64,000 bases of DNA from Dictyostelium discoideum (GCA_000004695.1 CM000151.3:6880001-6944000); one strand, 5' to 3'; counted from the stretch's first letter, positions 1,257-58,022 are shown. Notes: a model not told the origin generated them from the letters alone. Translations and numbers: made by a program.

Positions 1257-1530
1257 AATAAACCCAATAAATTCACTCTATTCTTTTTTTTTTTTTTTTA
1301 AACAAAAAAAAATTTATAAATTCTTCTTAAATTCTTTATTTTAAGATTTTTAAAATTTATTATTACTTTTTTTTTTTTTTTTTTATTTTTTTTTTTTTTT
1401 TTTTTAATAAACAATAAAAGAAATATTTTGAAAAAATTAAAAAAAATTATTTTTAGTTTAGTTTATTTTATTATTTTTCTACATCTTTATTTTTTTAATT
1501 TTTTTTTTTTTTTAATCATATTAAAAATTT

Positions 1531-4500: not shown

Positions 4501-5323
4501 AAATGGTTCTGTTACTATTGTTTCTACAACCCAATCTGATGTTCTCCATATTATTAAACTTTTATCTTCTGATTGTGATGCCAAATATCTACCTAATGGG
4601 TCCCATGTTAAACCTTTAACAAATCCTTTATGTTCCTCCAATTTTGACACCATTTCTATTATAAAAATTTAAAAAAAAAAATTTTATTAAGTTAATACAT
4701 AGTATGTTGAATCTTTAAGATTAATATTAAAATAAAAATACTTACGAAACTTATTAGTTTCCCAAATTATTATTGATTTATCAAAACTACATGTTGCAAT
4801 ATATTTATTATCTGGAGACCAACTAACTTCAGAGATATCTGAAGCATGACCTCTCAATGTTGCAACGCAAACCCAATTTTCTGTTGTATTTTTGAGTAGT
4901 GAATTATTGTTTGATAAACCCCAAATCATACATAATTTATCATCAGAACCTGATGCTAAATATTTACCATCCTTTGACCATTTAACTGAATTGACTGAAT
5001 GGAAATGTGCGTTCTCTATTGAACATAATAATTTGGGTATTCCCGCATCTTCTTCAGCCTCCAATAATGATATTGGTGCCATGCTCCATATTTTTATCTT
5101 TGCATCACCACCACCAGTTGCAACTCTTGTGCCATCTGGATGTATATCAATTGAGTATATAGATAATCCTAAAAAAATTATTCAATTTATTTATTTATTT
5201 ATTATTAATTTTTTATTTTTTTAATTTTTTTATTTTATTTTTAAATTTTATATAGCCAAATAATAATAATATTATTATTATCTTACCTCCATGCGATACC
5301 CATTGTGGTTTGAGGATTTTCAT
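1531..5323 (-). CDS. hira: HIRA-family histone cell-cycle regulator (WD40 N-terminus plus conserved Hira C-terminal domain), 5 exons: complement(join(1531..2454,2535..4305,4466..4655,4746..5168,5287..5323)); about 1114 aa
   Basis: The N-terminus MKILKPQWVSHGG/LSIYSIDIHPDGTRVATGGGDAKIKIWSM... has WD40 repeats (LRGHASDISEVSWSPDNKYIATCSFDKSIIIWE; HKGFVKGLTWDPLGRYLASQSEDKSLIIWRTSDW). The C-terminus EYKHWLLIYTKYLTN...LCTDLLGP...WESTILGLSKRSLLKEILPIMAGNRTLQRMVGQF aligns with the human HIRA C-terminus (HEYRHWLLVYARYLVNEG...ICKDLLGP...WESTVVGLRKRELLKELLPVIGQN). All introns are GTAAGT/GTACGG...AG and phase-consistent. Confidence 0.85.
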
Positions 5324-5339
5324 TTATTATTATTTGTTT

Positions 5340-5390
<51 letters not shown>

Positions 5391-5615
5391 TTTAAAAATG
5401 AAATAATAATATAAAAATTATTTTTGAAAAAAAAAAAAAATTTTTAAAAAAAAAAAAAACAAATATCAATGAGAAACAAATACACAAAGTGTGTGCGTGT
5501 GTATATGTATAAAAGTTTGATGGGATTATTATTTAATTAAAAAAAAAAAAAAAATTTCAACAAATTATTTTTTTTTTCACTTTTTTTTATTTTTATTTAA
5601 AAAAATGTAGCGCAT

Positions 5616-5660
<45 letters not shown>

Positions 5661-5787
5661 CTACCGTAGTTCAGAAAGATTTCATAAAAAAAAAAAAAAA
5701 AGAAAAAAAAAAAAAACCAATTTTGTGTGTGTTTCCAATTATAGATTTTTGTTTTTTAAAAAATTTTTAAAAATAAACAAAAAAAAA

Positions 5788-6475
5788 ATGGAAAATACAG
5801 ACCATTCTTATAATCAACAACCTGTAAATAATAATGATGTTAGGGATTTATTATTTGAAAATTCACCACTCGACCAATATCTTCAATGTAAATTATTATC
5901 AATCATTAATTAATTACACTATTTAATGATAAATTAAAAAAAAAATAAAAAAATAAAAAAATAAAAAAAAATACAACTTATTAATAAAGTTTTATATTTA
6001 TACTTAAATAGCATTAAATTTAAAAGAAAATGAAGATAATAGAGGTGAAGTTTTATCATTTGAAATGTTTAGTCAAGAGAATATTGAAAATAATGAAGAA
6101 TATAATCAAATAAAATATGATAATAACAATAATAATGAAAAAAATAACGATAATAATAATACTTTTAAAAATAAAAATAATAAAAATAACAACATCAAAC
6201 TAAATAAAATTCAAATATTCTTCATGTCATTATACCAATCTATATCATCAATTATAATTGAATCAGATATTCTATTAGTACAAGAGTCACCATTTATCCA
6301 AAATCCTAATTTATCATTAAAAGATAATGATGATAATGATGATGATGAATCACCATTACCACCAATATATCCATTATCATTATACACCTTAGATAATGAT
6401 AACATATCAAATAATAATAATAATAATAAAGAATTATCATTAAATATTATTGAATTAATATCAATATTATATAAC

Positions 6476-6511
<36 letters not shown>

Positions 6512-8462
6512 TATATAATTATATTGATATCAATTTTAATTTTAATAATATCAATATTTTTAAATTTTAAATTAATAATTTTTATATTTTCAATATCATT
6601 AATAGTGATTATATTAATATTGAAAATTATAAATTCAAAGATTAAAGAGATTCAAAGAAATATTAAATCATTAGAAAAAGTTAATTTAGAATTAATTGAT
6701 GCTTGTAAGAATCATTATAATCAAATTAGTAAAACTATACAATTAATTAGAGAAGTTGAATTAATATCAAGAGGTTATAGATTATCAACACCAATAACTC
6801 CAATTGAAAGAATTGAACAATCCAATAATAGTGGTAATGGTACTAGCAATAGTTATAAATCTGAAAAATCATTTATTTTAAGAGCAAGTGTTTCAAAATC
6901 ATTAAAAACATTTATAATTTTATTTAAAAATTTAATTGAAAATCAAGCAATTTCTTTAAATTTACTTGAAAATCAAAAACAATTTATTAAATGTCAATTA
7001 TCAGAACTTTTCAATTCAAATAATAATAATAATAATATTGATGATGATGATGATGATGATGATATTAACACAAAAGAAAATCAAGAAGAAATAGAATTAG
7101 ATCAATTAGAAAATGATTCACAATTACCAATTGTAACATTAAAATTAATGTTACATCAATATGAATTCATGGTTTCAAATTTCTTTACTTTATTTATTAT
7201 ATCATTTTCAAATTTATTAAATAATAATAATAATTTTAATAGAAGTGATGGTATTATTACTACTAGTAACCTCTTTAATTTTTCAAATATAAATAATAAC
7301 ATTTGCCAATTTCAATCAATTCTATTAAAAATTTCAAATAGATTAACGATTGAAAATAATTCAATTAAATCTTTAATTTCAAAAGAATTATGGGAAAATA
7401 GTATAATATCATCATCATTATTGTTATTTCATTCCCCTAGTACAAAAAAAAAAAAAAAAAAAAAAAAAATACCTTTTACTAACTATTATCATTATTTTTT
7501 CATTTTTTAATTTAGAAATTCCAAAAAGAGTTATATTATCAAAACCAAAGAAAACAACTATTGAATCATTTATATATAATACTAATCAAATAGCAGAATC
7601 ATTAAATAGCATTAGTCCATTATTTACAAGTTTACTTGAAAAAATAGTTCCCTTAAAACAAAATAATAATCAAAATAATAATCAAAATAATAATAATAAT
7701 AACAACAATAATAATAGTGATTATGAATCATCATCATCATCATCATCTATAACAATACTTGATATTTTAAAATTAGATGAAGTTGTAAATGACTTTTTAT
7801 TAATTAAAAATGAATTAACAAACTCATTAAAGAATTGGGATAATGCAAATAGATCTTTAGTAAAGATGGTTAGAACTATACCAACAACAAATCCAAATTT
7901 ACAAAAAGAATGGACTGAACAAGAAGCAACTGAAAAATTAAAAAAACTATTAGAAAAATTAAGATCCAATCATTTTAATAATAATGATGATCATGATGAT
8001 CATGACGATGATGATCCTAATAATCAAAGACGACAAAAACAAAATGAATTAAATAAATTAATGACTTCAACTACAACAATCAATGAAAATCAATGGTTAA
8101 TTTATGAAGATACTGGTGACCTTGATCCAACATATATTGAAAGACCTCTAATTCAAATTAATGAAAATACAAATAGTGAACTATCAAATACAAATAATGA
8201 AACAACAACAATAATAATAACAAAACCACCCCCACCTCCACCACCAATGGGATTACCAAGAAGAACCAAACCTCCAAAAAGGACAATGTATGATCCTGAT
8301 TTTGATCCAATAACTCAAAAAATGAAAATATCTTCTGAAACTAGTACTCAAAATAATAATAAAAATAGTATTGCTGCTTCAATAATTCCACAAAAGAAAT
8401 TAATGAATGAACTTAAAACTGTTTTAGATATTCATGTCCTAAAAAAGAATATGCCAACTTAA
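5788..8462 (+). CDS. hypothetical protein with poly-N/D tracts, one strongly hydrophobic transmembrane segment, coiled-coil-like segments and a C-terminal PPPPPPP motif; join(5788..5887,6012..7439,7516..8462)
   Basis: Three ORF pieces join with consistent phase. Intron 1 runs GTAAAT (5888) to AG (6010-6011). Intron 2 runs GTACAA (7440) to TTTAATTTAG (7515) and contains a TACTAAC-like branch motif. The hydrophobic stretch is IIILISILILIISIFLNFKLIIFIFSISLIVIILIL. No homologue recognised. Confidence 0.5.
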
Positions 8463-8600
8463 TACCAAAAAATAATAATAAATTCAATCTTGGGTCTTTT
8501 TATTTTGTTTTAAAATTTTTTTTTTTTTTTATTTTTTCTTTATCATTATTTCTTTTTTTTCGTGAGAAAAAATTAATTCAAGACTTTTTTTTTTTTAAAT

Positions 8601-9363
8601 TTATTTATTTCTTTGAGTAACTCTTTTAGCAGCATTGACAATGTTTTGAGTTTGGACCATACTATATATTCGAAAAAAAAAAAAAAAAAATTAATAAATG
8701 TGAACCAAATGAATAATTAAAAAAAAAAAAAACAAATTAATACTTACGCAGCATTTTCCAAGTTTGAAGCATATGGCATTGGAACATCAGCACCACAAAT
8801 TCTTTCAATTGGGGCATCTAAATAATCAAAAGCATGTTCCATCATTAATGCAGAGATTTCAGCACCAATACCAGATTGTGCCCAACCTTCTTCAACGGTA
8901 ACTAATTTATTTGTTTTTTTGAGTGAATTTACAATGGTTTCAGCATCAATTGGACGAATGGTACGTAAATTGATAACTTCAGCAGAGATACCTTCTTTGG
9001 CAAGTATTTCAGCAGCTTCCATACAGTTACTAACGATTCTAGAGAAACCAACAATTGTAACATCTTTACCTTCTCTTTCAACTTTTGCTTTACCAATTGG
9101 AACAAGGTATTCTTTATCTTGTTCTTGATCTGATAAATCAAATTTATAATTGTAAAGTAATTCACTCTCTAAATAAACAACTGGATTATCATCACGAATT
9201 GCTGATTTTAATAAACCTCTATGATCAGCAGCACTCCATGGTGCAACAACTTTAAGACCTGGAACACTACCATACCATGCAGCAAAACACTAAATTAATA
9301 ATAATTATAATTATTAATTATTAGTATTTTTAATTTGAAAGAAGGAGGGGGAGAGAGAGAGAG

Positions 9364-9394
<31 letters not shown>

Positions 9395-10166
9395 TACTTG
9401 ACTGTGTTGAGCACCAACAGCAGTTGGTGGACCATTTGGACCTCTCCAAACGATTGGATTGAAAACTTTACCACCAGACATATAATGAGTTTTAGCAGAT
9501 GAATTGATGATGTGATCAATTGCTTGCATAGCAAAGTTGAAAGTCATAAATTCAATGATTGGTCTAGTACCTGCCATAGCAGCACCAACACCAATACCAG
9601 CAAAACCAGCTTCTGTAATTGGAGTATCAATAATTCTATCACCACCATATTTATCGAATAATCCTTTAGTGATCTTGTATGCACCATTATATTGAGCTAC
9701 TTCTTCACCCATAATAAAAACTTTTTCATCTCTTGCTAATTCTTCATCCAATGCACTATTAATTGCATCACGAACTGTAACCTATATATAAAATAAAATA
9801 ATTTATTAATTATTTTAATTTAACAATAATAATAATAATATAATAAATATAATAAAAATAATAAAAATAATAAAAATAATATAGTTTTTTATTTTATTTT
9901 ATTTTATTTTATTTTATTTTATTTTTTGACACTATGGTGGGGTTCATTGTGGATTTTATTTTTTATTTTATTTTATTTTATTTATTTTTTTTTTTTTTTT
10001 GTTTTTTATTTTTTTTTTATTTTTTTTTTTTTTATAAAATAAATAAATAAATTGAATACATATAAAAAAAAATTCAACGTACCTCTTTAGTAGCATAAGT
10101 TCTAGTGATAATTCTAAAGTTAACTAATAATGATGGTTGAATTTTTTTTAAAATTGAAGACAACAT
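8601..10166 (-). CDS. pdhB: pyruvate dehydrogenase E1 component beta subunit, mitochondrial; complement(join(8601..8661,8748..9289,9398..9781,10083..10166))
   Basis: It starts [132 protein letters not shown]. It ends [98 protein letters not shown], which is collinear with human PDHB including the C-terminal IPQVKDIIFAIKK-type tail. Donors are GTACGT/GTAAGT. Confidence 0.9.
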
Positions 10167-10199
10167 TTTTGAATGATGATAAGTTAAAATTGTGATTTG

Positions 10200-10246
<47 letters not shown>

Positions 10247-11140
10247 AAGTCGCTGAAAAAATTGAAAAAAAAAAAAAAAAAAATTAATTTAAAATAAAAA
10301 AAATTAAAAAAAAATAAAAAAAAAAAACAATGTTAATTATTCATTCTTTTTTTGTTTTTTTGAATTGTTTTTCCCGATTGGATATTTAATAAACGAATTA
10401 ATTTCTTTTATAAGAGATATTATCTTTAAAGTTATAATAAATAAATTTTAATTTTTGTAAATTAATTAATTTTTATAAATTAATTATTTTTTTTTTTGTT
10501 TCTAAAAAAAAAAAGTTAATAGGATATTAATTTTAAAAGTGTTTAGAAAACAAAAAAAAAACAATAAAAAAGTCTTTAATGTAAAATTACTACCACCTAA
10601 TAAATAAATTTTGACATTTTATCATAAAAACATCAATGAAAATCGATCATATAAATAAAAATTAATTATTGGACAAGTTTGATAAATTCCAGATAAAATT
10701 AATACGACTTTACAAAAAATAAAAATAAAAGAATTATATTCAACTTTTATTTATTTAAAATAAAAGAAAAGAAAATAAACTTAAATTGTGTTTTTTATCC
10801 AATTCAATCAAAAGAACAAAAAATACACCCACTCCCCAATTACATTTTTATTTTTCCCAATTTTAATTTTATTTTTATTTTTTATTTTTTTATTTTTTAT
10901 TTTTTTATTATTTTTTTTTTTAAAAAATTTATTTATTATATTATTATATTATAATATTAAATTTTTTAGGTAATTAATTTAATATTAAATTTTAACTCTA
11001 CCCCAAAAATGTAACGTGTGCGCATAAATTTTCGTTTTTCATAAAAAAAAAAAAAAAAATCAAAAAAAAAAAAAATTTCAGGGTGACAAAAAATTTTTTG
11101 AAAAATTTTCTCATTCTTTCAGTTTAACATTTCCCCAAAC
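10167..11140. promoter_or_regulatory. divergent intergenic/promoter region shared by pdhB (-) and rps18 (+)
   Basis: A 974-bp AT-rich spacer lies between the two start codons. Long poly(T)/poly(A) tracts sit at 10200-10250 and 11040-11075. No ORF. Confidence 0.4.
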
Positions 11141-11920
11141 ATGTCATCCGTACGTATTTGCCGTCACATATTTTATAGATAGTGAAAGTAGAGGAGAAGA
11201 GAGAAAAGATTGAAACAATATGGTGACCATGTTGTTTATATAGTTGGATTGAAATAGATTGATACTATTTCATAATAGATTGAAGATAATATAGAATAGA
11301 GATTATGGTCCTCCATAGATACACATATACTAATCAAATCCAACAACAACAAATAAATATATTATTTATAGTCATTAGTTTTCCAAGGAGAATTCCAACA
11401 CATCATTCGTATTTACAATACCAATGTTGACGGTAGAAGAAAGATTCAATACGCTCTTACCTGTGTTAAAGGTGTTGGTCGTAGATTTGCCAATTTAGTC
11501 TGCAAAAAGGCTGATATTGATACCTCAAAAAGAGCTGGTGAACTTTCAAAAGATGAAGTCGAAAGATTAACCACCATCATGAATCACCCAAGACAATACA
11601 ATATCCCAACTTGGTTCCTTAACAGACAAAAGGATATTAAAGACGGTAAATACTCTCATTGTCTTGCCAATCAAATCGATGTCAAATTCAGAGAAGATTT
11701 AGAAAGATTAAAGAAAATCAGAGCACACAGAGGTGTCAGACATCACTTTGGTCTCCGTGTTAGAGGTCAAAAGACCAAAACCACCGGTATGTAACAAATA
11801 ACAAACAACAAAGCATAATAAATATAATCATAAACCAATAATAACATATACTAATATAATTAATTTTTAAAATTTATAGGTAGAAGAGGTCGTACTGTTG
11901 GTGTTGCTGGTCGTAGATAA
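11141..11920 (+). CDS. rps18: 40S ribosomal protein S18 (uS13); join(11141..11149,11372..11786,11880..11920)
   Basis: [154 protein letters not shown] is nearly collinear with human RPS18. There is a tiny 9-nt first exon. Donors are GTACGT and GTATGT and acceptors are TTATAG/TTTATAG. Confidence 0.9.
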
Positions 11921-13916
11921 ATTCGTTAAACCCATCATAATAAACTATTTTTTAGTAATATAGCATTAAGTGCGTTTTATTTATTTTAGTATTTTTTATT
12001 GAGTTAGAGGAATCAAAAATTATTATTATATTACTATTATTATTTTAAGTCAATAGTTTTTTAATTTAATTTTATTATAAATCTACAAATCTATATTTCA
12101 TCAATTAATTGGACATTATTCAATACAAATAAAAAAAATAAATGACAACATATATGAACTAAAAATAGAATTTTTTTTTTATATAAACACACCGATCCAA
12201 AAAAAGTGTGGTTAAAATTTAATAACAATATCTAGATTTAAATTTTTTTTTTTTTTTTTTTTTTTATATGTATACTAAAATAAATAAAAAACAAATATAT
12301 ATAAAAGAAATAATTATTTTTATAAATGACGATCATTTATTTTTTATTTGTTATTTATGTCAGTAAAAAATGTTTTGAGAGAAATTTTTTTTTTTTTTTT
12401 TTTATACATACTAACCAAACTTTAAATCAGATTCTACATAAACTAATGTTATAAAAAAAAAAAAAAAAAACAAAAATGAAAAGATATTGGATTTAAATAA
12501 CTGCGAAATAGATTTAAATCAATGAAGTTTTAATAATATCCAAGACCAAACATATGCATAAAAAAAAAATTAAAAAAAAAAAAAAAAAAAAAAAAATTAT
12601 TAAAAATTTATTATTATTTTATTCCAGCTTGTATTTAATTTCCAAGGCAAGAGAATAAAATTTCTATTAATATTCATTAATTTTTTTTTATTTTTTTAAA
12701 GATTTATTAAGAAATACTAAATACTTTATAATGGTTTAATTATTATTTTATTTTTTTTTTTTTTTTTGATTTCATTTTTGATCATGTGATCCAATGAATC
12801 AATATAAAAAAAAATAAAAAAAAAAAAAAATAAAATATTTTAATAAAAATAAAATATTTTGGTTAGTGGTGGGTGTTGATATCAACATTTTACTTTTTAA
12901 AAATCAAAAACCTATTTTTAATGTCAATTGCAACATTAACTAATTACAAATTCTTTCATTAATTCCGAATATTATTAAATATTTTCTTTGAAAACAAAAA
13001 AAAAAAAAGAATAAAAAAACAAAGAGTATTTTATAAAATTGTTTTACATATTTTATATTTTAGTTTTTTTTTTTTTATTTAATTTTTTTTTTTTTTTATT
13101 TTATTTTTATATAGTTTTATTTAATAATTTACGAAAACATATTCTCTTCATTTTAAAATATAAATAATGATATATAGTAAGTTGTAGAAAAAAAAAAAAA
13201 AAAAAAATGAAATTAATAAAAAATATTTTGTTATTTATTTATTAACAATTATTTAATTTAAATTATTTCAGAATCAATGGTTTTTAAATATTATAAATGT
13301 GAATCATGTAATTCAAATCATATAGAATCAGGTTCATCTCATTCAATAAATTATTGTTTGGATTTAAATTCAAGTAAAATTTATAGAAATCTAACATGTA
13401 CATCATTTTTTACTCGCCCAATTTTCCAATCTTTTTAAATATTAGGTCAACACTGAATTTCTTGAAAAAAAAAAAACAAATAAAATAAAAAATCCATCAA
13501 ATGAAAAAACAATTGAACATATATTCCGAAATCAAAATAAGATTAAAAAATTTCAAATTGTTAGATTTTATTTATATTTTTTAAAAAATATTAAAACAAA
13601 CAATTAATAAATTATTTTCATTTTATTTTGCTATTAAAAAAATCATTTATTTCTAAAATTGTTTTTTGAGAAATTAGAATTAAAAAAAAAAAAAGAAAAA
13701 CCCCACAAACAAAAATAATAAAATTAATTCTGGTTAGTCGACACATAATGAAAATAAAACTAATTCTGGTGAGTCAACATTTTGAAAATAAAATTAATTT
13801 ATTTTTAATAAAAAAAAGATTTTTCAATTCTTTTTTTTCTTCATTATTCAAGACGAAAATTGACCATCTTCATCAAAAAAAAAAAATTTAATTTAATTTT
13901 TTTTTTGGTAGTGAAT

Positions 13917-14366
13917 GGGGCATAAGATCAGTGAATTTATTTGATTTTCATTTAAAATATCATCCTGAAAGAATACAAACCTATATTAGAGCAGCATTTG
14001 GCTCAATCTTCCTATATTATCATCCAAAATTTATTATTAAGGTTTTAAAATTTTTAGAAGAGTCTATCAATCATAATAAACCATTTACTTTAACTATAAG
14101 TGAAAGAAATTATTTCATTATTAAATATTTAGATAGTTATAAATATAATGAAGAATTGTTTTAAAATGATATTGAATAATCCGATATCACCAACTTCAAT
14201 ATTTCGAAATATCCAAATTTTTAAGAAATTTTCAAGTGTAGATACAAGAATGGGTGTATATAGTTATTTAACTTATAAAAAATTACTCCCTTTTGGATTT
14301 AATAGTATTCGAACATCATTTTATTACCGTAATGAAAGTTCATACGAACCTAAATTAACTTTCTAA
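13917..14366 (+). pseudogene. truncated, frameshifted paralogous fragment of the large gene at 17934..22781; it covers codons ~110-250 and then runs straight into the 3' end/3' flank
   Basis: ORFs 13931..14164 and 14148..14366 sit in different frames. They read LFDFHLKYHPERIQTYI...HPKFIIKVLKFLEESINHNKPFTLTISERNYFI and ...PISPTSIF...KKLLPFGFNSIRTSF, mirroring VDLFDFHLKYHPEELQTHI...HPKLIIKVLNFFKESINHNKPITLTKNERNYFI...PISSTSIF...QKLLPFGFNNIQTSF in the large gene. The 3' flank at 14355-14400 (AAATTAACTTTCTAAAAA...ATAAAACAATA) matches the 3' flank of the large gene at 22848-22895. Confidence 0.6.
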
Positions 14367-16380: not shown

Positions 16381-17085
16381 ATGGAGACTAAATTAAATTT
16401 TGATGAAGCTATAAATAAAATTGACAAGATATTGAAACTTGGTCAACTTTTTAATGTAGTCGGAGGAGATATCTTTTTCTGTATTTGTAGTACTAGTAAT
16501 TCCGATGTAAATAATATTGATAAACAAGAAAATAATGATAACGGTAATAGTGATAATAAATTTGATGAGCAAGTATGCAAACGTTTTGAAAATAATTTTA
16601 ATACCAGATTTACAAATATGGTAATCAATATAAAAACTAAACCAGTTAGAGTTGAATTTATTGGTAATTGTGATTCAAAATCAACCGAATTAGAAATAAT
16701 TAAATATTATCGTTCAAATCCAAATTTTATTAATTTAGTAGATTATGAAAATAATAGTTCAACCTCTTCAAATGAAAATAATAGATATATTCATATTCGT
16801 CTTTATTCATTACCAAAAGAATGGTCAATGACATATGTTTGTGAAAAATCTTTTGAACATTCCCATACCCACACTCATGAACAAGGTCATGGTCATCATC
16901 ACAATCACCATCATAATCAGAATGATCATCACCATCACCACCATAATGATCTTGACCCTTCCCATCACCATCACCACCACCATGAGGATGATCATTCTCA
17001 TGAACATGGACATTCCCACTCTCATACTCACACCCATACTCACCCAGGCTCAGAAGAAACCTATCAATGTATGAATTTCCATTGA
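16381..17085 (+). CDS. hypothetical 234-aa protein with a C-terminal histidine-rich (HxH/HHHHHH) tail; single exon
   Basis: Uninterrupted ORF. The C-terminal 80 aa read EHSHTHTHEQGHGHHHNHHHNQNDHHHHHHNDLDPSHHHHHHHEDDHSHEHGHSHSHTHTHTHP. The N-terminal 150 aa are ordinary composition (METKLNFDEAINKIDKILKLGQLFNVVGGDIFFCICS...). No homologue recognised. Confidence 0.5.
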   Translation: METKLNFDEAINKIDKILKLGQLFNVVGGDIFFCICSTSNSDVNNIDKQENNDNGNSDNKFDEQVCKRFENNFNTRFTNMVINIKTKPVRVEFIGNCDSKSTELEIIKYYRSNPNFINLVDYENNSSTSSNENNRYIHIRLYSLPKEWSMTYVCEKSFEHSHTHTHEQGHGHHHNHHHNQNDHHHHHHNDLDPSHHHHHHHEDDHSHEHGHSHSHTHTHTHPGSEETYQCMNFH

Positions 17086-17389: not shown

Positions 17390-17933
17390 ACTATTTCTTG
17401 GATGTCCAAAACAAAAATTCATTTTATTTTTTTTATTTTTTTATTTTAATTTTTTTAATTTTTCTTTTTTCATTTTTTTTTTTTTTTAAAACAAAACTTA
17501 AATAAAAATAATAAATAATCAAAGAATTGGATGAGTACTTCAAACCATTATCACTTCAAATTGTTATTTGTAAGAAAATAATAATAAATAATCAAAGAAT
17601 TGGATGGGTACTTCAAACCATTATCACATTTAAATCTTTGTTATCTGTCCCAAAATTACCATAATAATTTCAGCCTAAAAACGGGTTGTTTATGCATGCT
17701 TAAATTGATATGGTAATTTTGGGACAGATAACAAAGATTTAAATGTAGAGCTTTTATTTTTTTCTATTTCTAAATAAGTTGGTATGAATTTTGAAAATCA
17801 AAAGAAAAAAACACGATTTCTTGGATATCCAAAACAAAAATTTTTTTTTTTTTAATTTTTTTATTTTTTCATTTTTTTTTTATTTTTTTTTTTCTTTTAA
17901 ACAAAATATAAATAAAAATAATAAATAATTATA
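17390..17933. repeat. composite repeat region upstream of the large gene, with four parts: two direct copies of its promoter/5' leader (17390-17530 and 17810-17933); two tandem 48-bp copies of a fragment homologous to the gene's 3' coding end (17507-17553 and 17578-17627); a perfect 37-bp inverted repeat (17628-17664 / 17710-17746); and a 45-bp spacer
   Basis: The direct copies share TTTCTTGGATGTCCAAAACAAAAATT...AAACAAAACTTAAATAAAAATAATAAATAAT. GATGGGTACTTCAAACCATTATCAC resembles GATGGGTACGTCAAACCATTATCATC at 22631-22657. The inverted repeat is ACATTTAAATCTTTGTTATCTGTCCCAAAATTACCAT with its exact reverse complement. Confidence 0.7.
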
Positions 17934-20900
17934 ATGAATAATGAATATAATGAATTATTATTTTGGAAAGTTTTTAAAAATAATTATTTATTAAATTGTA
18001 TATTAAAAAATAAATGTTGTTATAAAAGTAAAAAATTTAAAACTATTACATCAATAGATTCAATGTTAAAACATAAACAATATCAACTGTTGATATGTAA
18101 ATTAAAAGCAGATGAAAATTTGTATTTTAAAGGAAAATATGGAAATGATGAGATCATTAATAGAATAGAAGATATAGAAGTATTCAAAGAGATATATTCA
18201 TTATTACTCTTTAAAGGTTATCAAGATACTAGGGATCATCGTATTTTATTCGATAGTATTTGGGGTATAAAATCAGTAGATTTATTTGATTTTCATTTAA
18301 AATATCATCCAGAAGAATTACAAACCCATATTACAACATCCATATACTCAATCTTGGTATATAATCATCCAAAATTAATAATAAAGGTTTTAAATTTTTT
18401 TAAAGAGTCCATCAATCATAATAAACCAATAACTTTAACCAAAAATGAAAGAAATTATTTCATTATGGAATATTTATATTATTGTAGATATGGAAGAAAT
18501 ATTGAAGAATTGAAAGAAAAGATGAAAATGATATGGAATATTCCAATATCGTCAACCTCAATATTTCATAATTCAGAAAAAAGAGTTCCAAGTGCGAATG
18601 TAGGTTGTTTTCTAAAATATCAAAAATTATTACCTTTTGGATTTAATAATATTCAAACATCATTTGATTGCTCTAAAGAAAATCCAAGGAGTTATTCTTC
18701 TATTGGTGATAGGCGGGGAGATGAAAATAATCAACGTTCTGTTTATAGCATAAATCATTTAAATATGTTTTCAAGTTTTTGTTATGACTTTGATGATAGT
18801 ATTTGCGAGTACATAAAAGATGTTAAAGGAAATTTTGAGTGTATCTCTTCATCTATCAAATCAGTTTTATTATATTTTAAATTGTATTATTGCAACTATG
18901 ATTATAAAAGTAAATCAAAAAGTATACCAACATCGATTCAAACTCAAATTGATATAATAATTGAAAATAGTAAACATAGACGTTGTACTGTATATCAATC
19001 AATTAAACAATTATTTCAACTATTAGCCATTGAATCAAAATCAATTGTTTTATATGCATTTTATTTAAAAGAATATAATGAACCAATTGATACCATTGAA
19101 CTTAGTGAAGAAATTCAATTATTGTTAATATATTACATGATAAAAACCTATAACACCAATATATTAAAGTTTCTATTGAAAAAACATTTAAAAATCAAAT
19201 TAACAAAATTAGATTTGGACTATATTGGTGAATCATATCTCAAATTTTTATTTAAAAGTAAACAAATTAATAAAAACAATATTATTATGTTCTACAAAAA
19301 CTACACATCACAAAAATCAATCATTATAGAAGATTTAGATGAAAAACCACTAGATGATGCAATATCAACAAAGGAACTTATTGATTTGGACAATAAACGA
19401 TTACATTCAATTCTAGGTAATGAATCATCATCGAAATGGAAAGAAATTACATCAAATATAATTGATAATGATATGATTGTTACAATTAAAGATAAAGAAA
19501 CAATCGATTGGTTATCAGATATAGAAACAGGTGGTGGTTGTAGTATTTTAAAAATAAGAGATGCTTTAAATTCAAAATTAAAACAAATGAAACTTGATTT
19601 TAGTACATTGGAATTATTAGAATATGCAAGAATCAAATTTAAACAAGTAATTCCAATTTTAGATTTAAATAAAGAGTTGTGTAATATCCACATTTTACGT
19701 ACTCATGATGATATTGAATCATTAATCAATCGTTTAAACCAATCAAACTTTAATAACAATGAAAATTTATTTAAATATTATATGATTCAAATAATTCAAT
19801 TTGGTTCAAGAAATTCAATGAAATACCTAAGATTAATTTGTGATTCTATTGACGAGTTATTAATGGACTATGAAGGTTGGGTAATTTTAGATGACACTTT
19901 AAGAAGGTTTTATATTAACTCATACCTAATAGAAGGAGAGATATGGGACAATTCAGTAGGTTATCATGAAAATAAAAAGTTCAAAGAATACAAAATACCA
20001 ACTCAACAAACATGTCAAATAATCAATCTCACCAAAATTAAAGTCAATTTCAATCACTTTCCAAATGTAACTTCTTATTTATTACAAACATTTATCGAAC
20101 TTTTAAATTTTGAAGGTGTTCAGTTTATTCTTGATAATTTAAATGGTAAAAATTTAAAATTAAATGAAAAAGCATTTAAAGATCGTTTTCATGATAGAAT
20201 CTATACATGCAAATATTTATATAAAGATTTGATTGAAATGATTCAATTTTTAATTAATAAATTCAAAGATGGTCAATTATCATTATCAAATTTATCATTG
20301 ATATTAAATTTCTTATTTTCAATGTTAATTAGAGTCAATGATTTAACAAATGATCAAATCAAAACAGCTTATCAATCAATATCAAACTATATTGAAATAG
20401 ATAGTTCAGAACTCAATTCATACTATTATTTAAAAACATTATCACCCATTATTTCATCATGTATTATCATTTTTAGAGATAATGGTGGTGGTGATGTTAG
20501 ACCATTACTTGAATATCATATAGATACATCAGTATATACATTCGAACATATATTTACAAATAGAAATAATAACGATCTGAACCAATTTATCGATTCAACA
20601 ATCATGGATATTGTAAAAGATCGTTTTTATTCTAATTTAAACAAAATGTTAGATAACAATAATCCAAGAATTAATTTATTTTTACATTATTTCGAAATTC
20701 AATTAAAATACAAAAATGAAAATGATTTCAAAGGACCATTTTTAAATTATAAACTATTGAAATTAATAATTAAAACATTTGATTTAGAATCATTTATTAA
20801 ATTAGATAGTTTATTAGAGAACCATAATGGTAATTGTGAGCAAGAGGGTTCAAATAACAGGATTTTAAGCGAATTAGAGAAATTTTATTTTAATTGGAAA

Positions 20901-22781
20901 AAACCATTATCATCTAATATGGTTGAATGGTTTGGTATAATTGTATACAAAGATTATTCAGATTATCAAGATATTATAAATTACTTATTTAATAAATATA
21001 AACACCAATTGGAACCATATATAATTTACTATAAATTAAAAATAAATAATAAATCAATAACTAATAATCAGTTACATTCAATTTTATGTAATAAATCATC
21101 ATCGAAATGGAAAGAAATTACATCGAATCTAATTGGTAAGGCCGCTGCTACAATTAAAGATAAAGAAACAATCGATTGGTTATCAGATATAGAAACAGGT
21201 GGTTGTAGTAATTTAAAAATAAGAGATGCTTTACATTCAAGATTAAATCATATGGAACTTGATTTTAGTTCATTGGAATTATTAGAGTATGCAAGAATCA
21301 AATTTAAACAAATCATTTCAATTTTCGATTTATGTGATGAGTTTTTCGAAATTCATATTTTACATACTCATGATGAAATTGAATCATTAATCAATCGTTT
21401 AAACCAATCAAACTTTAATGAAAATGAAGATTTATTTAAAAATTATATGATTCAAATAATTGAATTTGGTTCAAGACTTTCAGCTAAACACATAAGATCA
21501 ATCTTTAAATCATTGGAATATGGCGTTGACAAGTCATCATTGGGAAATGATAATTATAAAGAGTGGAAGTATTTAATAAACAAAGTTTTCAAATACGAGT
21601 ATAGAAGGTTTTTTGATAACCCCTCATACATCCATGAAGAATATTTTTTGGGCCAAATACTACGTGATCATAAAAACGAAGAATACAAAGAATACAATAT
21701 ACCAACTCGACAAGAATCTCAAATAATCAATCTTTCTAAAATTAAAGTCAATTTCAATCACTTTGCAAATGTAACTTCTTATTTATTTCAAGGATCCATC
21801 GAACTTTTAAATTTTGAAGGTGTTCAATTTATTCTTGATAATTTAAATGGTAAAGATTTAAAATTAAATGAAAAAGCATTTAAAGATCATTTTCATGATA
21901 GAATCTATTCATGCGAATATGTTTCTAAAGATTTATATGATACCATTCAATTTTTAATTGAAAAATTCGAAGATGGTCAATTATCACTATCAAATCTATC
22001 ATTGATATTAAATTACTTATTTTCCAAGTTAATTAGAGTCAATGATTTAACAATTGATCAAATCAACATATCTCATCAATTAATATCAAACTATATTGAA
22101 ATAGATAGTTCAAAATACAATTCATACTATTATTTAAAAATATTATCACCAATTATTGAATCATGTATTACCGTTATCGAAGGTCCTACAAGTGATGATG
22201 AAGATGGTAATGGAAAACCAAGACCATTCTGTCATTATGATATAGATACATCAGTATATACATTCGAACACATATTTACAAATAGAAATAATAACGATCA
22301 GAACCAATTTATCGATTCAACAATCATGGATATTGTAAAAGATAATTTTACAATTGAAATATTTTCCAAAATGTTAGATAATAATAATCCAAGAATTAAT
22401 TTATTTTTACATTATTTCGAAATGGAATTAAAAAAAAGAAAAACAAGTAATGATTTCGAAAATGTATTTTTAGAATTTGAACAATTGAAATTAATAATTA
22501 AAACATTTGATTTAGAATCATTTATTAAATTTGAATATTTATTACAACAATATCAATTCTACTTATCACCTGATATCGATGAATGGTCAGATATAAACAA
22601 AGAGTATGCAAATGATCAAGAGGATATAAATGATGGGTACGTCAAACCATTATCATCTAATTTGGTTGAATGGTTTGGTAAAATTTCATTCATATATTAT
22701 CCAGATTATCCAGATATTCTTAATTACTTATTTGATAAATATAAAAACCAATTCGAACCATATACTAATTATATAAATTAA
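17934..22781 (+). CDS. large lineage-specific hypothetical protein, 1615 aa, single exon, built from an N-terminal unique region plus two tandem ~555-aa internal repeats
   Basis: Continuous ORF. Repeat 1 is about 19400-21070 (HSILGNESSSKWKEITSN...KPLSSNMVEWFGII...). Repeat 2 is about 21070-22740 (HSILCNKSSSKWKEITSN...KPLSSNLVEWFGKI...). The two share roughly 75-80% amino-acid identity. No known domain recognised. Confidence 0.75.
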   Translation: MNNEYNELLFWKVFKNNYLLNCILKNKCCYKSKKFKTITSIDSMLKHKQYQLLICKLKADENLYFKGKYGNDEIINRIEDIEVFKEIYSLLLFKGYQDTRDHRILFDSIWGIKSVDLFDFHLKYHPEELQTHITTSIYSILVYNHPKLIIKVLNFFKESINHNKPITLTKNERNYFIMEYLYYCRYGRNIEELKEKMKMIWNIPISSTSIFHNSEKRVPSANVGCFLKYQKLLPFGFNNIQTSFDCSKENPRSYSSIGDRRGDENNQRSVYSINHLNMFSSFCYDFDDSICEYIKDVKGNFECISSSIKSVLLYFKLYYCNYDYKSKSKSIPTSIQTQIDIIIENSKHRRCTVYQSIKQLFQLLAIESKSIVLYAFYLKEYNEPIDTIELSEEIQLLLIYYMIKTYNTNILKFLLKKHLKIKLTKLDLDYIGESYLKFLFKSKQINKNNIIMFYKNYTSQKSIIIEDLDEKPLDDAISTKELIDLDNKRLHSILGNESSSKWKEITSNIIDNDMIVTIKDKETIDWLSDIETGGGCSILKIRDALNSKLKQMKLDFSTLELLEYARIKFKQVIPILDLNKELCNIHILRTHDDIESLINRLNQSNFNNNENLFKYYMIQIIQFGSRNSMKYLRLICDSIDELLMDYEGWVILDDTLRRFYINSYLIEGEIWDNSVGYHENKKFKEYKIPTQQTCQIINLTKIKVNFNHFPNVTSYLLQTFIELLNFEGVQFILDNLNGKNLKLNEKAFKDRFHDRIYTCKYLYKDLIEMIQFLINKFKDGQLSLSNLSLILNFLFSMLIRVNDLTNDQIKTAYQSISNYIEIDSSELNSYYYLKTLSPIISSCIIIFRDNGGGDVRPLLEYHIDTSVYTFEHIFTNRNNNDLNQFIDSTIMDIVKDRFYSNLNKMLDNNNPRINLFLHYFEIQLKYKNENDFKGPFLNYKLLKLIIKTFDLESFIKLDSLLENHNGNCEQEGSNNRILSELEKFYFNWKKPLSSNMVEWFGIIVYKDYSDYQDIINYLFNKYKHQLEPYIIYYKLKINNKSITNNQLHSILCNKSSSKWKEITSNLIGKAAATIKDKETIDWLSDIETGGCSNLKIRDALHSRLNHMELDFSSLELLEYARIKFKQIISIFDLCDEFFEIHILHTHDEIESLINRLNQSNFNENEDLFKNYMIQIIEFGSRLSAKHIRSIFKSLEYGVDKSSLGNDNYKEWKYLINKVFKYEYRRFFDNPSYIHEEYFLGQILRDHKNEEYKEYNIPTRQESQIINLSKIKVNFNHFANVTSYLFQGSIELLNFEGVQFILDNLNGKDLKLNEKAFKDHFHDRIYSCEYVSKDLYDTIQFLIEKFEDGQLSLSNLSLILNYLFSKLIRVNDLTIDQINISHQLISNYIEIDSSKYNSYYYLKILSPIIESCITVIEGPTSDDEDGNGKPRPFCHYDIDTSVYTFEHIFTNRNNNDQNQFIDSTIMDIVKDNFTIEIFSKMLDNNNPRINLFLHYFEMELKKRKTSNDFENVFLEFEQLKLIIKTFDLESFIKFEYLLQQYQFYLSPDIDEWSDINKEYANDQEDINDGYVKPLSSNLVEWFGKISFIYYPDYPDILNYLFDKYKNQFEPYTNYIN

Positions 22782-22980
22782 AACTTTCAATTCAAAAATT
22801 CAATTACTGCTATTAGTTAAAATCTTTTCACATAAAATCAATATTGTTCTAAATTAACTTTCTAAAAAAATAAAATTATAAAAATAAAACAATATATTTA
22901 CACAAAAAAAAAAACCAAAAAAAAAAAAAAAAAATTATTACTCTTTGTTCCAATTACTTGTGGTAGTTGTTGTTTGATTT

Positions 22981-56607: not shown

Positions 56608-58022
56608 TTAATTAGTAGTTTGAGGAATTGAATTATCAACTGGAATTGAATTTTCAATTTTAGCAGAAGAATCAACTTTTGAAAGGTTTGGAGTTGAAGA
56701 TTCAACGGGTTTTTTAAAAATATAATCTGGTTTTACACAATCAGCAGGAAGATTTGGATTATGAATGAAATAGTGTGGTTTATGAATGAAATTTGGATCC
56801 TTTGCCAAATTTACTTTTGCTTTCTTTCTTTGAAGATCTTCGATTCTTTGTTTTTCAAGACCAGCCTTTCTACTATCTTTCTTTGCGAAACCCTCAGCAA
56901 CACCTTTCCAAACCTTTTGAGAAGCATTCTCTTTTAATTGTTCCATTGGTTCCTCGATGACTGGTTCAGAACGCATGGTATTGTAATTTATAAAGACACC
57001 AGATGTTTTATCTTTGAGATTAGTGATGGTAAGTATATCAACATGAGTACCATGAATATCATAGATTGGTTCGGTACCTTTGCTAACTATGATTTGAAGA
57101 TCGTGCCATTTGCCACCAATGATTGGTTTGTCCTTGAAATTGATGACTGCGCTATAGCCAGTTTCTGGACAAACAAAATTATATTTACCAGTGAATTCAA
57201 ATTTCCATCTCAAAAGACGAAGATAACCCTCTGTGAATTTATCGTTGAAATAGGTCTCGGTGACACCACCCTCTCTCTCCAATGTGATACAAGTCTTTAC
57301 ATCCATATTGACACGAATACATTTACCCTTGAATACTGGTGTGATTTGTTGTTTTGAATCAAATTTGATCTTATGTTTATCATTGTAAAAGTTAAAACAT
57401 GAAATTGGTGGATGATGTGAAATTTGTTCGGCTGTGAAATGTGTAATATCACCTTGAATCACCTCATTGGTCTTCTCATCTGTATGTTGAACTTGACATT
57501 CATAAACTTCTCCTAAAATTGGATTCAATGGATTCTTTGGGAAATACATCTTTGGCCATGTTAAATGATATTTTAAAACTTGTAAAAATCTTTGATCATC
57601 TTCTTTAATATATGGTGCACTATTTAAAATTTTAAAATTTTAAAAAATTAATATAAAATGAAAAAAATAAAAAAATAAAAAAAAATAAAAAAGTAATATA
57701 TATATATAAATTACCTTGTTAATAAATGTGAAAAAATTGCTGATTGTTGTTGAATTGCTGTTAAGAAACTAATTGGTTGTACAAATGTTGCTGGAATTGG
57801 TAATTTAGTCATATCTGCACCAACTTTAAGATGATTCTTAATGAATCCAAATGCTTGTTTCATAACACCTGCCTCTGTGGCTGGTTCAGAATCAATCATT
57901 GCATCAGCTCCACTATTTTCAGTTTGATCAACTCCTTCAGCTTCAACGCCATCACTTGAAAGATCACTAACACTATCTTCTGTTAATGGTGCTTCTTTAT
58001 TGCTTGCTACTTTTGCTGACAT
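56608..58022 (-). CDS. oxysterol-binding protein (OSBP/ORP) family member, short ORD-only type; complement(join(56608..57619,57715..58022))
   Basis: The OSBP fingerprint EQISHHPPISCF is present. Context is LLTR/SAPYIKEDDQRFLQVLKYHLTWPKMYFPKNPLNPILGEVYECQ...FTAEQISHHPPISCFNFYND...KFEFTGKYNFVCPETGYSAVINFKDKP. The intron runs GTAATT to TTTTAAATAG in phase 2. Confidence 0.85.

Follow-up and report, generated by a model that had tools for sequence, protein, structure and literature searches.

The window, the whole 64,000-nucleotide stretch of Dictyostelium discoideum AX4 chromosome 2 that we analysed, contains at 17934..22781 (+ strand) a complete open reading frame (ORF) of 1615 codons plus stop. 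It matches DDB_G0276559 with 100% identity and coverage; the frame is open throughout, and its translation is the annotated 1615-aa protein DDB_G0276559 (UniProt Q551L0). The gene model has no intron, as had been predicted from the sequence. Three parts can be distinguished: a single-copy N region (aa 1-486; 17934..19391, +), unit 1 (N487-T1043, 557 codons; 19392..21062, +) and unit 2 (N1044-N1615 plus stop; 21063..22781, +). Self-alignment delimits both units; unit 1 is the counterpart of the first and middle units in orthologues from other strains, while unit 2 is of the terminal type and falls in the terminal-unit clade. A separate assembly, built from Nanopore and Illumina reads (methods in PMC12745789), also encodes a 1615-aa protein, identical to DDB_G0276559 at 1613/1615 positions with 0 gaps. 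The presence of this near-identical protein in an independent assembly indicates that the duplication is not an assembly artefact, and the stop or frameshift that resequencing might have revealed was not found.

The original prediction, that some 1.67 kb had been tandemly duplicated in frame within the gene, was borne out by self-BLASTN, BLASTP of the two halves and repeat spacing. Self-BLASTN of the ORF aligned nt 1459-3106 with nt 3130-4848 (window positions 19392-21039 and 21063-22781), with 80.3% of 1730 columns identical (E = 0). At the protein level the two halves also align, with 368/570 identities (65%), 75% positives and 624 bits (E = 0), and the blocks proposed as shared (SSSKWKEITSN, TIKDKETIDWLSDIETGG, ESLINRLNQSNFN, LNFEGVQFILDNLNGK and KPLSS.(M/L)VEWFG) were all found in both copies by BLASTP. 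The same blocks recur in register 1665-1743 nt apart in the DNA, and the repeat has a period of 557 codons (1671 nt). The units are further apart than the 20-25% protein divergence first estimated: the actual figure is ~35%, and 17-20% is the divergence of the DNA. Sliding identity between the units falls to 63% in a hypervariable, indel-rich segment of unit 1 (approximately 19842..20000, +), whose unit 2 counterpart lies at ~21513-21720 and in which Ua and Ub, units from other strains, have deletions. Unit 2 is acidic (pI 5.0).

DDB_G0276559 had been described as an orphan, but it belongs to a family with no fewer than seven intact members in AX4, along with relics; the paralogue census suggested as a check recovered family members, and singleton status did not survive it. 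Domain mapping across 29 family proteins, most of which consist of an N region and one U unit, defined a standard plan consisting of a head motif (~60 aa), an N region (~490 aa) and, at the C terminus, a single U unit (~555 aa). The head motif (aa 1-63; 17934..18122, +) shows the highest density of invariant columns anywhere in the family alignments and follows the pattern E-x-LFWKVFKN-x-YL-x-N-x-I ... KF-x-x-ITS-x-x-x-M-x-K-x-x-Q-x-LL-x-x-KL; residues 1-63 of DDB_G0276559 map to columns that are invariant or nearly so in the family head, E-x-LFWKVFKN-x-YL...ITS...QYQLL-x-CKL. The N region is basic (pI 8.8) and predicted to be helical. Its residues 1-489 share 48-76% identity with all 28 other proteins, phmmer envelopes span 1-486, and homology between N region and U unit is not significant (hhalign E = 0.087). 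The U unit, which opens with LHSIL...SSKWKEITSN...TIKDKETIDWLS, ends with KPLSSNMVEWFG...EPY and measures ~555 aa, is present twice; the protein identity to the units of single-unit members is 60-76% for unit 1 and 52-67% for unit 2. Rather than following the standard single-U plan, DDB_G0276559 groups with P0002, P0004, P0005 and P0013 in a multi-unit sub-lineage. The unusual length noted at the outset is real at 1615 aa, but much of it is due to the extra unit, ordinary family members having ~1025-1100 aa.

The AX4 paralogues (DDB_G0276409, DDB_G0276403, DDB_G0276401, DDB_G0271218, DDB_G0284279 and DDB_G0276547), all annotated as hypothetical proteins, are mainly clustered on chromosome 2. 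They resemble DDB_G0276559 in having the head motif, N region and U unit, with 53-77% protein identity over the aligned parts, and none has a Pfam domain; they have one U unit and ~1025-1180 aa, whereas DDB_G0276559 has two units and its positional orthologues two to three. Matches by tblastn and blastn also identified the relic of a neighbouring family member, covering N-region residues ~105-258 (13899..14363, +) and partly annotated as the 72-aa gene DDB_G0276501 (P0044; 14148-14363 at 100%). This relic is 93% identical in DNA to part of a gene of 1100 aa that is intact at the corresponding, syntenic site of isolates L001 and L002; the remainder of that gene is deleted in AX4.

A search for the family among 1.84 billion representatives returned 21 matches, all from Dictyostelium, and the gene family is, to judge from sequence, restricted to Dictyostelium/social amoebae. 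Outside the family, HMMER detects only the head motif, in D. purpureum proteins (E = 1e-10 to 1e-12) and in AX4 DDB_G0273369/G0273683; AX4 DDB_G0289603 likewise matches in the head motif only (N profile, positions 4-95). In D. purpureum, DICPUDRAFT_146599 and the ORFs of ~1100 codons next to it carry, in collinear order, the head motif, IKDKE-x-ID where the unit begins, and the U core, the last aligning with the family at 98.4% hhalign probability (E = 4e-15). These ORFs are similar to family members in length, lie side by side and likewise lack Pfam domains, but they share only ~20-25% identity and have a single unit, and in place of the basic double-cysteine KNKCC-x-KSKKFK seen in the D. discoideum family they have a longer acidic insert.

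We located the inter-unit junction (21033..21086, +) by comparing its nucleotides and codons with those of canonical 3' ends and of N/U boundaries. In the tail of unit 1, KLKINNKSI corresponds to KLKLLNQKSI of the canonical C-terminal tail; it leads in frame into N-N-Q-LHSIL, the counterpart of the N-K-Q-LHSIL seen where the N region canonically meets the U unit. The breakpoint, T1043|N1044 (position 21062|21063), is intragenic and in frame. The same junction motif is found twice each in P0002 and P0004 and once in P0013; the junction is also present in the positional orthologues of other isolates and is thus not private to the AX4 copy. At the 3' end, three-frame translation and DNA alignment uncovered a relic of the canonical C-terminal tail, out of frame past the stop (22769..22816, +), which reads LYKLKLSIQKFNYCY* in the shifted frame. 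The net 1-nt shift shortens unit 2 by about 14 codons, and the terminal unit of strain W has the same shift.

Unit number varies between isolates. AX4 and the second laboratory-strain assembly have two units, L002 has a single 2013-codon ORF with three intact units, and the L001 ORF ends within the third unit, giving two units plus a truncated or decayed third. Flanking genes are kept in L001 and L002, which establishes positional orthology, and the position of DDB_G0276559 is syntenic in three other assemblies. Because the same junction occurs in these three-unit and two-plus-truncated orthologues, the duplication came before the strains diverged, and the number of units has altered in the meantime. 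The N + U + U duplication is older than the split of AX4 from the Central American isolates, in keeping with the great age first ascribed to it; Ks is 0.19 between units versus about 0.09 between orthologues.

With regard to correspondence between units, unit 2 is 89% identical in DNA to W_Uc and clusters with its terminal counterparts in P0002, P0005 and P0013 (bootstrap 89-98%). Unit 1 shares 88% DNA identity with W_Ua, 87% with W_Ub and 83% with AX4 unit 2; in the protein neighbour-joining (NJ) tree, it groups with single-unit paralogues (79% bootstrap), outside the Ua/Ub/Uc clade (92%). The DNA identities favour orthology of unit 1 with Ua/Ub, although the deletions in Ua and Ub complicate tree and identities alike, and the NJ placement could reflect gene conversion or a chimaeric or fusion origin.

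As 7-10% of random substitutions would be nonsense, the 283 substitutions between the units would be expected to create ~21-28 stop codons. None was found, and in simulations the frame remained open in 0/2000 cases. Nine of the ten indels are multiples of three, and shuffled sequence yields a mean open frame of ~65 codons. The maximum-likelihood omega of DDB_G0276559 is 0.71-1.33, not significantly different from 1 in any comparison and consistent with Nei-Gojobori estimates; for four neighbouring genes it is 0.00-0.18 (p <= 3e-5). Omega is 0.47-0.55 at paralogue-conserved sites and 1.57-2.41 at variable sites. This variable-site excess is significant in one of two comparisons (p = 0.018), which are non-independent (L001 and L002 being 97-99% identical), and it could be inflated by misalignment in indel-rich segments. 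Reading frame and motif set are preserved, while the other residues change as fast as synonymous sites or faster. From the maintenance of the frame, we infer that DDB_G0276559 is probably expressed as a protein.

Pfam and PDB sequence searches gave no match, in agreement with the prediction that the protein has no recognisable domain, and family profiles found no relative among PDB sequences. Modelling of one unit with AlphaFold2, which had been put forward as a way to identify it, produced a helical structure. The two structure models, which derive from shallow alignments, reach a pLDDT of 55 and 65.5, a low to moderate level of confidence. Within unit 2, a confident alpha-helical core (unit residues ~220-500; 21729..22571, +; pLDDT ~80-95) coincides with the stretch that aligns to the D. 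purpureum relatives; the equivalent in unit 1 is at approximately 20050-20890, and pLDDT is low at unit 2 residues 137-217. The U unit is modelled as an alpha-helical solenoid of generic type, and the only structural neighbours of the model are generic alpha-solenoids. Any likeness to alpha-solenoid proteins (HEAT, ARM, TOG, PPR and designed helical repeats) would be structural and generic: HEAT, ARM, TPR or related Pfam profiles did not match even at E <= 10, nor did PDB sequences. DDB_G0276559 has no transmembrane segment (maximum 19-residue hydropathy, 1.55), no N-terminal hydrophobic leader or signal peptide was found, and the protein is predicted to be soluble and mostly alpha-helical. 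For the N-terminal motif, an F-box substrate receptor was one candidate; neither the first 211 aa nor the motif-only proteins matched an F-box profile at E <= 10, and we rejected it. The head-motif profile found no Skp1-binding protein in the PDB.

The anatomy of the junction is consistent with non-allelic recombination or replication slippage, a mechanism that would have joined a point ~5 codons before the stop, in frame, to a point 3 codons before the LHSIL that opens the U unit, giving the N + U + U product. The terminal unit has later gained features of its own, including the common truncating frameshift in the tail. Two tandem homologous units of 1.67 kb could then undergo unequal crossing-over, which would be able to alter unit count and produce the states seen in the isolates. 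Taken as a whole, we consider this structural and evolutionary account of DDB_G0276559, as a family member with a duplicated module, to be probably correct. Unit duplication followed by change in number is an already familiar kind of gene evolution.

An identical product would arise if two adjacent paralogues had fused through deletion of the stop region, the short spacer and the downstream N region, by a mechanistically similar route (a CDS end joined non-allelically to a unit start). Family members do follow one another head to tail, just ~150 bp apart, P0003, an annotated protein of another isolate, is N+U+N+U, and the NJ tree puts AX4 unit 1 among single-unit paralogues. In protein identity, unit 2 is about equally distant from unit 1 (65%) and from the units of other paralogues (58-67%); in DNA, however, it is nearer to the units of its own locus (U1, Ua and Ub, 83-86%) than to the unit of the neighbouring paralogue (~80%). 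The extra units all fall in one clade (92% bootstrap), no trace of an N region was found at the junction, and we regard fusion as unlikely. An assembly or annotation artefact, in which tandem paralogues were collapsed or expanded or two genes were merged by the annotator, is effectively already refuted. Tandem paralogues with short spacers are hard to assemble from Sanger-era data and some family gene models are clearly imperfect, but the frame is continuous across the junction, other isolates share that junction and the Nanopore and Illumina assembly encodes the same 1615-aa protein; moreover, as the copies differ at ~17-20% of nucleotides, a mis-joined identical repeat is excluded.

Whether the ORF is instead a decaying pseudogene, or otherwise non-functional, with its duplicated half drifting neutrally, bears on the same data. 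The overall omega indistinguishable from 1, the frameshift in the unit 2 tail, the truncated third unit in one isolate and the relics of family members nearby are what such decay would leave. Against this, the missing stops, the failure of every neutral simulation to keep the frame, the prevalence of in-frame indels, the 2013-codon open frame in another isolate and the invariant residue blocks kept in 24 paralogues, with omega ~0.5 there, make neutral drift very improbable; the tail frameshift is the only one, lies at the extreme 3' end, costs ~14 residues and is common to lineages. We likewise give scant credence to derivation from a mobile element or virus, which would explain a multicopy, strain-variable and orphan-like gene with relics, isolate-dependent copy number and no cellular domain recognised by Pfam. 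Transposase, integrase, reverse-transcriptase and capsid domains were not found, predicted viral structures gave no significant match, and the gene flanks have low-complexity A/T runs only, with no terminal direct or inverted repeats. Furthermore, synteny holds at the locus from isolate to isolate, flanking genes included, and copies sit in local tandem arrays rather than being dispersed.

Returning to the duplicated-module account, analogy with other systems allows a tentative suggestion as to function, which we put forward as a possibility: DDB_G0276559 may be a soluble binding or adaptor protein in which the conserved head and motifs act as a constant scaffold or effector-docking part and variable U modules provide the binding surfaces. 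Solenoid-like U units would in that case track fast-changing partners, and gain or loss of units would alter valency or repertoire.

In fungal NLR-like proteins, WD, ANK and TPR arrays vary in repeat number by unequal crossing-over. DDB_G0276559 has no NACHT or NB-ARC and is not known to be connected with cell death or immunity, and its module is domain-sized (557 aa) as opposed to a 30-40-aa repeat, but strain-variable, in-frame tandem modules and a concentration of non-synonymous change at a subset of sites are common to both. Tgr proteins have Ig-like/TIG domains, a signal peptide and a transmembrane segment. In contrast, DDB_G0276559 has no TIG/Ig Pfam match and neither of the latter two, and its models are all-helical, which sets it apart from Tgr proteins; nothing observed points to a role in kin recognition. 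The likeness to tgr (tgrB1/tgrC1), a clustered, strain-variable family of cell-surface allorecognition genes described from the same genome set, lies in how the two families evolve, with clustering, gain, fragmentation, loss, recombination and unusually fast protein divergence in each (tgr: PMC12745789).

The open reading frame DDB_G0276559 (UniProt Q551L0; 17934-22781, + strand) has 1615 codons and 100% identity to the protein encoded on chromosome 2 of Dictyostelium discoideum AX4, and lies in a window that is AT-rich (G+C ~22%) and contains poly-Asn coding tracts. The internal repeat claimed for this frame in the original prediction was borne out by self-comparison: nucleotides 1459-3106 of the ORF match nucleotides 3130-4848 at 80.3% identity, and an end-to-end alignment of the two protein halves has 368/570 identities (65%; 624 bits). 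The repeat consists of two modules of ~555 aa, U1 (residues 487-1043) and U2 (residues 1044-1615), which follow an N region present once. The coordinates and motifs first described for the repeat were correct, whereas the protein divergence of 20-25% was too low, the real value being ~35% (17-20% for DNA). Resequencing, named then as a possible source of refutation, was available from a Nanopore/Illumina assembly, in which locus tag ACTFIT_004386 encodes a 1615-aa protein that is the same as DDB_G0276559 at 1613 positions, free of gaps. We presume this assembly to be AX2-214, given that its proteins match those of AX4 exactly or almost exactly. As a separate assembly encodes a near-identical protein, an assembly artefact is excluded.

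The gene had also been taken for an orphan, which did not hold. Among 5.8 billion proteins searched, we identified 29 relatives, every one of them from D. discoideum or 'D. cf. discoideum', and more distant kin were found in D. purpureum. The suggested census of paralogues placed DDB_G0276409, DDB_G0276403, DDB_G0276401, DDB_G0271218, DDB_G0284279 and DDB_G0276547 beside DDB_G0276559 in AX4. In the standard family plan, a single U unit of ~555 aa comes after an N region of ~490 aa (1025-1100 aa in total); DDB_G0276559 has the architecture N + U1 + U2. Further multi-unit proteins are P0002 (three units), P0004 (two and part of a third), P0005 and P0013. A 2046-aa protein from another isolate, P0003, is annotated as N+U+N+U, which reflects either a genuine fusion by read-through or merging in the annotation.

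When 1.84 billion cluster representatives were searched exhaustively with HMMs, just 21 proteins were returned, from Dictyostelium only, and the full-length-type matches that were looked up were D. discoideum or D. cf. discoideum proteins. Beyond the family, the head motif (the conserved N-terminal ~60 aa, residues 1-63 of DDB_G0276559) was alone in reaching D. purpureum 'partial' proteins and AX4 DDB_G0273369/DDB_G0273683. Reading the D. purpureum loci directly revealed that the 76-aa models cover just the beginning of open frames of ~1100 codons, which corrects their annotation as partial. DICPUDRAFT_23830 and DICPUDRAFT_23422 (76 aa, marked partial) begin such uninterrupted frames and are distant family relatives. 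The long frames lie at 7896-11354 (+) and 3801-7172 (-) of one D. purpureum locus (L003), where the two family-like genes stand head to head, and at 7326-10715 (+) of another (L004), where the open frame runs on upstream, ahead of the head motif. They are collinear with the family, with the U core matched at 98.4% probability (E = 4e-15) in profile-profile comparison, the head motif at E = 9e-4 (hhalign) and 1e-10 to 1e-12 (HMMER), and the IKDKE-x-ID motif of the unit start at E = 0.025, in the expected order. A mixed profile of D. discoideum and D. purpureum sequences brought in DICPUDRAFT_100004, DICPUDRAFT_152192 and AX4 DDB_G0289603, in which a second head motif and a clear second U match were absent. 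In word-indexed searches with the head motif and the mixed profile, new matches were hypothetical proteins only. By these profile and HMM searches, the family is confined to Dictyostelium; it diverges very fast, and the gene is not a de novo singleton.

The anatomy of the junction shows how the two units are joined. Canonical members end in ...EPY-x-x-(Y/F)-KLKLLNQKSI-YYSGY followed by the stop, or in a similar tail of 2-6 residues, and the canonical unit start is ...G-NKQ-LHSIL. In DDB_G0276559, the end of U1 (...EPYIIYYKLKINNKSIT) joins NNQ-LHSIL directly, with the 3' breakpoint about five codons ahead of the stop and the 5' breakpoint three codons ahead of LHSIL. U1 thereby spans N487-T1043 (557 codons, 1671 nt, + strand), and the junction falls between 21062 and 21063. 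The frame is kept across U1/U2 at a junction inside the coding sequence, in agreement with the in-frame duplication originally described, and loss of a stop codon is therefore not needed. Read-through of a U1 stop by a TAG to CAG (Gln) change was dropped, as canonical 3' ends put the breakpoint inside the coding tail. This in-frame intragenic junction is common to lineages: the motif KLK(L/I)NNK(S/T)IT(D/N)-x-Q-L(H/Y)SIL is found at the two junctions each of P0002 and P0004 and at the single junction of P0013, with a variant in P0005. That the motif is shared by P0002, P0004, P0013 and DDB_G0276559 points to a single ancestral junction. At the other end of the gene, U2 stops early, a net 1-nt shift creating the stop at 22779-22781 with loss of ~14 residues; the lost C-terminal tail can still be read just past this stop in the shifted frame, as the relic LYKLKLSIQKFNYCY plus stop at 22769-22816 (+). 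The same shift occurs in the terminal unit of another isolate, so the truncation of U2 is old.

We compared the AX4 locus with two wild-isolate loci from the genome set of PMC12745789, L001 (GCA_054859385.1) and L002 (GCA_054859355.1). Both carry, in order, the ribosomal protein S13 gene, a 1100-aa family member, a 233-aa His-rich protein, the multi-unit gene and the downstream genes. Unit number varies: L002 has one 2013-codon open frame with three intact units, in L001 the frame stops within the third unit, and AX4 has two. AX4 U1 shares 88% and 87% DNA identity with the first and middle units of the strain W orthologue (W_Ua and W_Ub), and AX4 U2 shares 89% with its terminal unit (W_Uc); AX4 U1 and U2 are 83% identical to each other, and W_Ua and W_Ub 90%. 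Ks is 0.19 between U1 and U2 as against 0.085-0.09 between AX4 and its positional orthologues (0.07-0.14 for neighbouring genes), so that the split between first and terminal units is about twice as old as the lineage split. Since then, either one lineage has acquired an additional unit or AX4 has lost one. Across 10607-31517 of the window, AX4 differs from L001 and L002, both labelled D. discoideum, by ~8-13% of DNA positions. This difference and the Ks of 0.07-0.14 fit the published account, in which tropical isolates were picked as likely genetically distinct or cryptic lineages (PMC12745789).

We infer that recombination or slippage first joined a coding-sequence end to a unit start non-allelically, and that later changes in unit number would have arisen by unequal crossing-over between the 1.67-kb units. 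In a neighbour-joining tree of the proteins, terminal units grouped with 89-98% bootstrap support and the full set of extra units with 92%, and AX4 U1 fell beside single-unit paralogues (79% bootstrap). Because of this discordance we retain, at low probability, an origin of the two-unit gene by fusion of neighbouring paralogues; gene conversion, rate differences or the deletions in units Ua and Ub may lie behind it. A transposon origin of DDB_G0276559 was rejected, as only low-complexity A/T repeats flank the gene.

By Nei-Gojobori counting, Ka/Ks was 1.15 for U1 against U2, 1.3-1.5 when the N region was compared with orthologues, and 0-0.5 in neighbouring genes. Given that counting methods can mislead in so AT-rich a genome, we turned to pairwise fits of the Goldman-Yang codon model (F3x4, kappa free) and tested each omega against 1 by likelihood ratio. 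For DDB_G0276559, omega was 1.26-1.33 in the N region and 0.71-0.89 in the units, with no significant departure from 1, and for four neighbouring genes it was 0.00-0.18 (p 3e-5 to 2e-15). On average, then, the protein evolves near-neutrally and keeps conserved motifs. Its reading frame is strongly protected. With 283 substitutions between U1 and U2 and a nonsense rate of 7-10% for random substitution, ~21-28 stops are expected between the units and 0 are present. Neutral simulations left the frame open in 0/2000 cases, 9/10 indels between U1 and U2 are multiples of three (the exception being the tail shift), and open frames in shuffled sequence average 65 codons. When sites were partitioned by their conservation among paralogues, leaving aside the DDB_G0276559 locus, conserved sites gave omega 0.47-0.55 (p = 0.014-0.058) and variable sites 1.57 (p = 0.19) and 2.41 (p = 0.018), in two orthologue comparisons that are not independent and to which alignment error in variable segments may contribute. 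For these reasons, diversifying selection is no more than suggested. Simple pseudogene decay is excluded.

The surrounding sequence has also been reshaped. A relic of a family member (13899-14363, +) covers N-region residues ~105-258, with 454 bp at 13899-14352 being 93% DNA-identical; it matches part of the 1100-aa gene that is intact at the same position in L001 and L002, the remainder being deleted in AX4. The 72-aa gene DDB_G0276501 (14148-14363) is a fragment of this relic and probably not a real gene. Elsewhere, family members stand head to tail with a spacer of ~150 bp. In a lab-strain assembly (L005, 6793-13129; GCA_054883475.1), DDB_G0276403 lies directly downstream, at ~150 bp, of 510-aa and 372-aa models, presumed to be a split DDB_G0276401. 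Upstream of the ATG at 17934, the segment 17490-17810 is missing from the orthologous regions of L001 and L002. It contains direct 62-nt copies (17504-17565 and 17577-17638) encoding IIKELD(E/G)YFKPLS, which matches the family C-terminal motif ITKELDEYVKPLS (tblastn E = 2.5e-4; best of 60 shuffles 0.004); the segment is apparently what remains, rearranged, of a family member's 3' end. A 49-bp inverted repeat (17626-17674/17698-17746; 94% complementary, 23-nt loop) could form a long hairpin RNA; Rfam returned only plant miRNA hairpin families for it, far below gathering scores and on hairpin shape alone. Between the two relics lies a 234-aa ORF (16381-17085, +) whose C-terminal third carries H-x repeats and long stretches of His (HHHHHH, HGHSHSHTHTHTH); it possibly encodes a metal-binding protein. 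At 98.7% identity in wild isolates and omega ~0.06, it is strongly constrained and directly adjoins the fast-evolving gene. The strongest GC skew in the window (+0.52 at 14% G+C) is at 58001-60000, probably low-complexity intergenic sequence.

As originally stated, the protein has no recognisable domain: Pfam searches with the whole protein, each unit, the head motif, the paralogues and the D. purpureum relatives gave nothing above noise. A profile search of PDB sequences gave no match for the family and a chance match only for the head motif, and assignment of the head motif as an F-box was rejected because profile support was absent. Neither a transmembrane segment nor a signal-like leader was found in DDB_G0276559. 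The N region is basic (pI 8.8) and U2 acidic (pI 5.0). For N + U1, AlphaFold2 gave a model of unusable quality (pLDDT 55, pTM 0.34); U2, modelled from a more diverse alignment, reached pLDDT 65.5 and pTM 0.59, with pLDDT 80-95 over residues ~220-500. Every model is nearly all helical, and fold-search neighbours, including the Foldseek matches of N + U1, are generic alpha-solenoids only, with no Foldseek match at E <= 0.001 in PDB or BFVD. The start of the protein (aa 20-40; 17991-18053, LNCILKNKCCYKSKKFKTITS) and the U start (aa 490-507; 19401-19454, LHSILGNESSSKWKEITS) have a common L-x-x-IL-x-N...SK(F/W)K-x-ITS pattern, both occurrences being at module starts; with an hhalign E = 0.087 over 18 columns only, it is not significant, and the idea that N and U are ancient copies of each other was rejected.

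A tentative reading, drawn by analogy from other modular families that evolve fast and which we think possible though rather unlikely, is that a constant head and scaffold carry variable solenoid binding modules that track fast-changing partners. More doubtful still is the proposal that in this family group-4 dictyostelids have a hypervariable intracellular system for recognition or conflict that had gone unrecognised, for example one that senses fast-evolving factors from bacteria, viruses or selfish elements, or acts as an adaptor for them. The constant head would then couple to a downstream pathway and the domain-sized alpha-solenoid units would serve as specificity modules, with selection diversifying unit sequence and unequal crossing-over altering unit number; the AX4-specific upstream hairpin relic might add small-RNA control of the family.

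A literature search by gene identifiers found no paper that mentions these genes, and the PNAS 2025 genome paper from which the assemblies come does not discuss the family (PMC12745789). Our analysis joins at least 5 'hypothetical protein' entries and the tiny model DDB_G0276501 as one family with a clear modular plan, and gives a nucleotide-level account of the two-unit origin and its junction. The locus is one of the regions of rapid turnover in the D. discoideum genome: a gene has been lost, units have been gained or lost, and amino acids have changed about as fast as synonymous sites, all beside neighbours under strong constraint. Families with such turnover elsewhere often act in immunity, self/non-self recognition or genetic conflict, which makes this one a reasonable candidate list for work on amoeba-microbe interaction or kin discrimination.

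The phenomenon itself is of a known kind: a domain has been duplicated internally, and its copy number has changed, in a family that is lineage-restricted and evolves fast. As proteins are well known to evolve by duplication of a domain-sized module and subsequent change in unit number, the DDB_G0276559 case changes no concept. The tgr allorecognition genes are defined by surface Ig-like domains and a transmembrane anchor, features that this family lacks. In behaviour, however, the two are alike, both being clustered, strain-variable and recombining in the same genomes (PMC12745789 for tgr), and with alpha-solenoid repeat proteins the family shares a likeness in modelled shape only.
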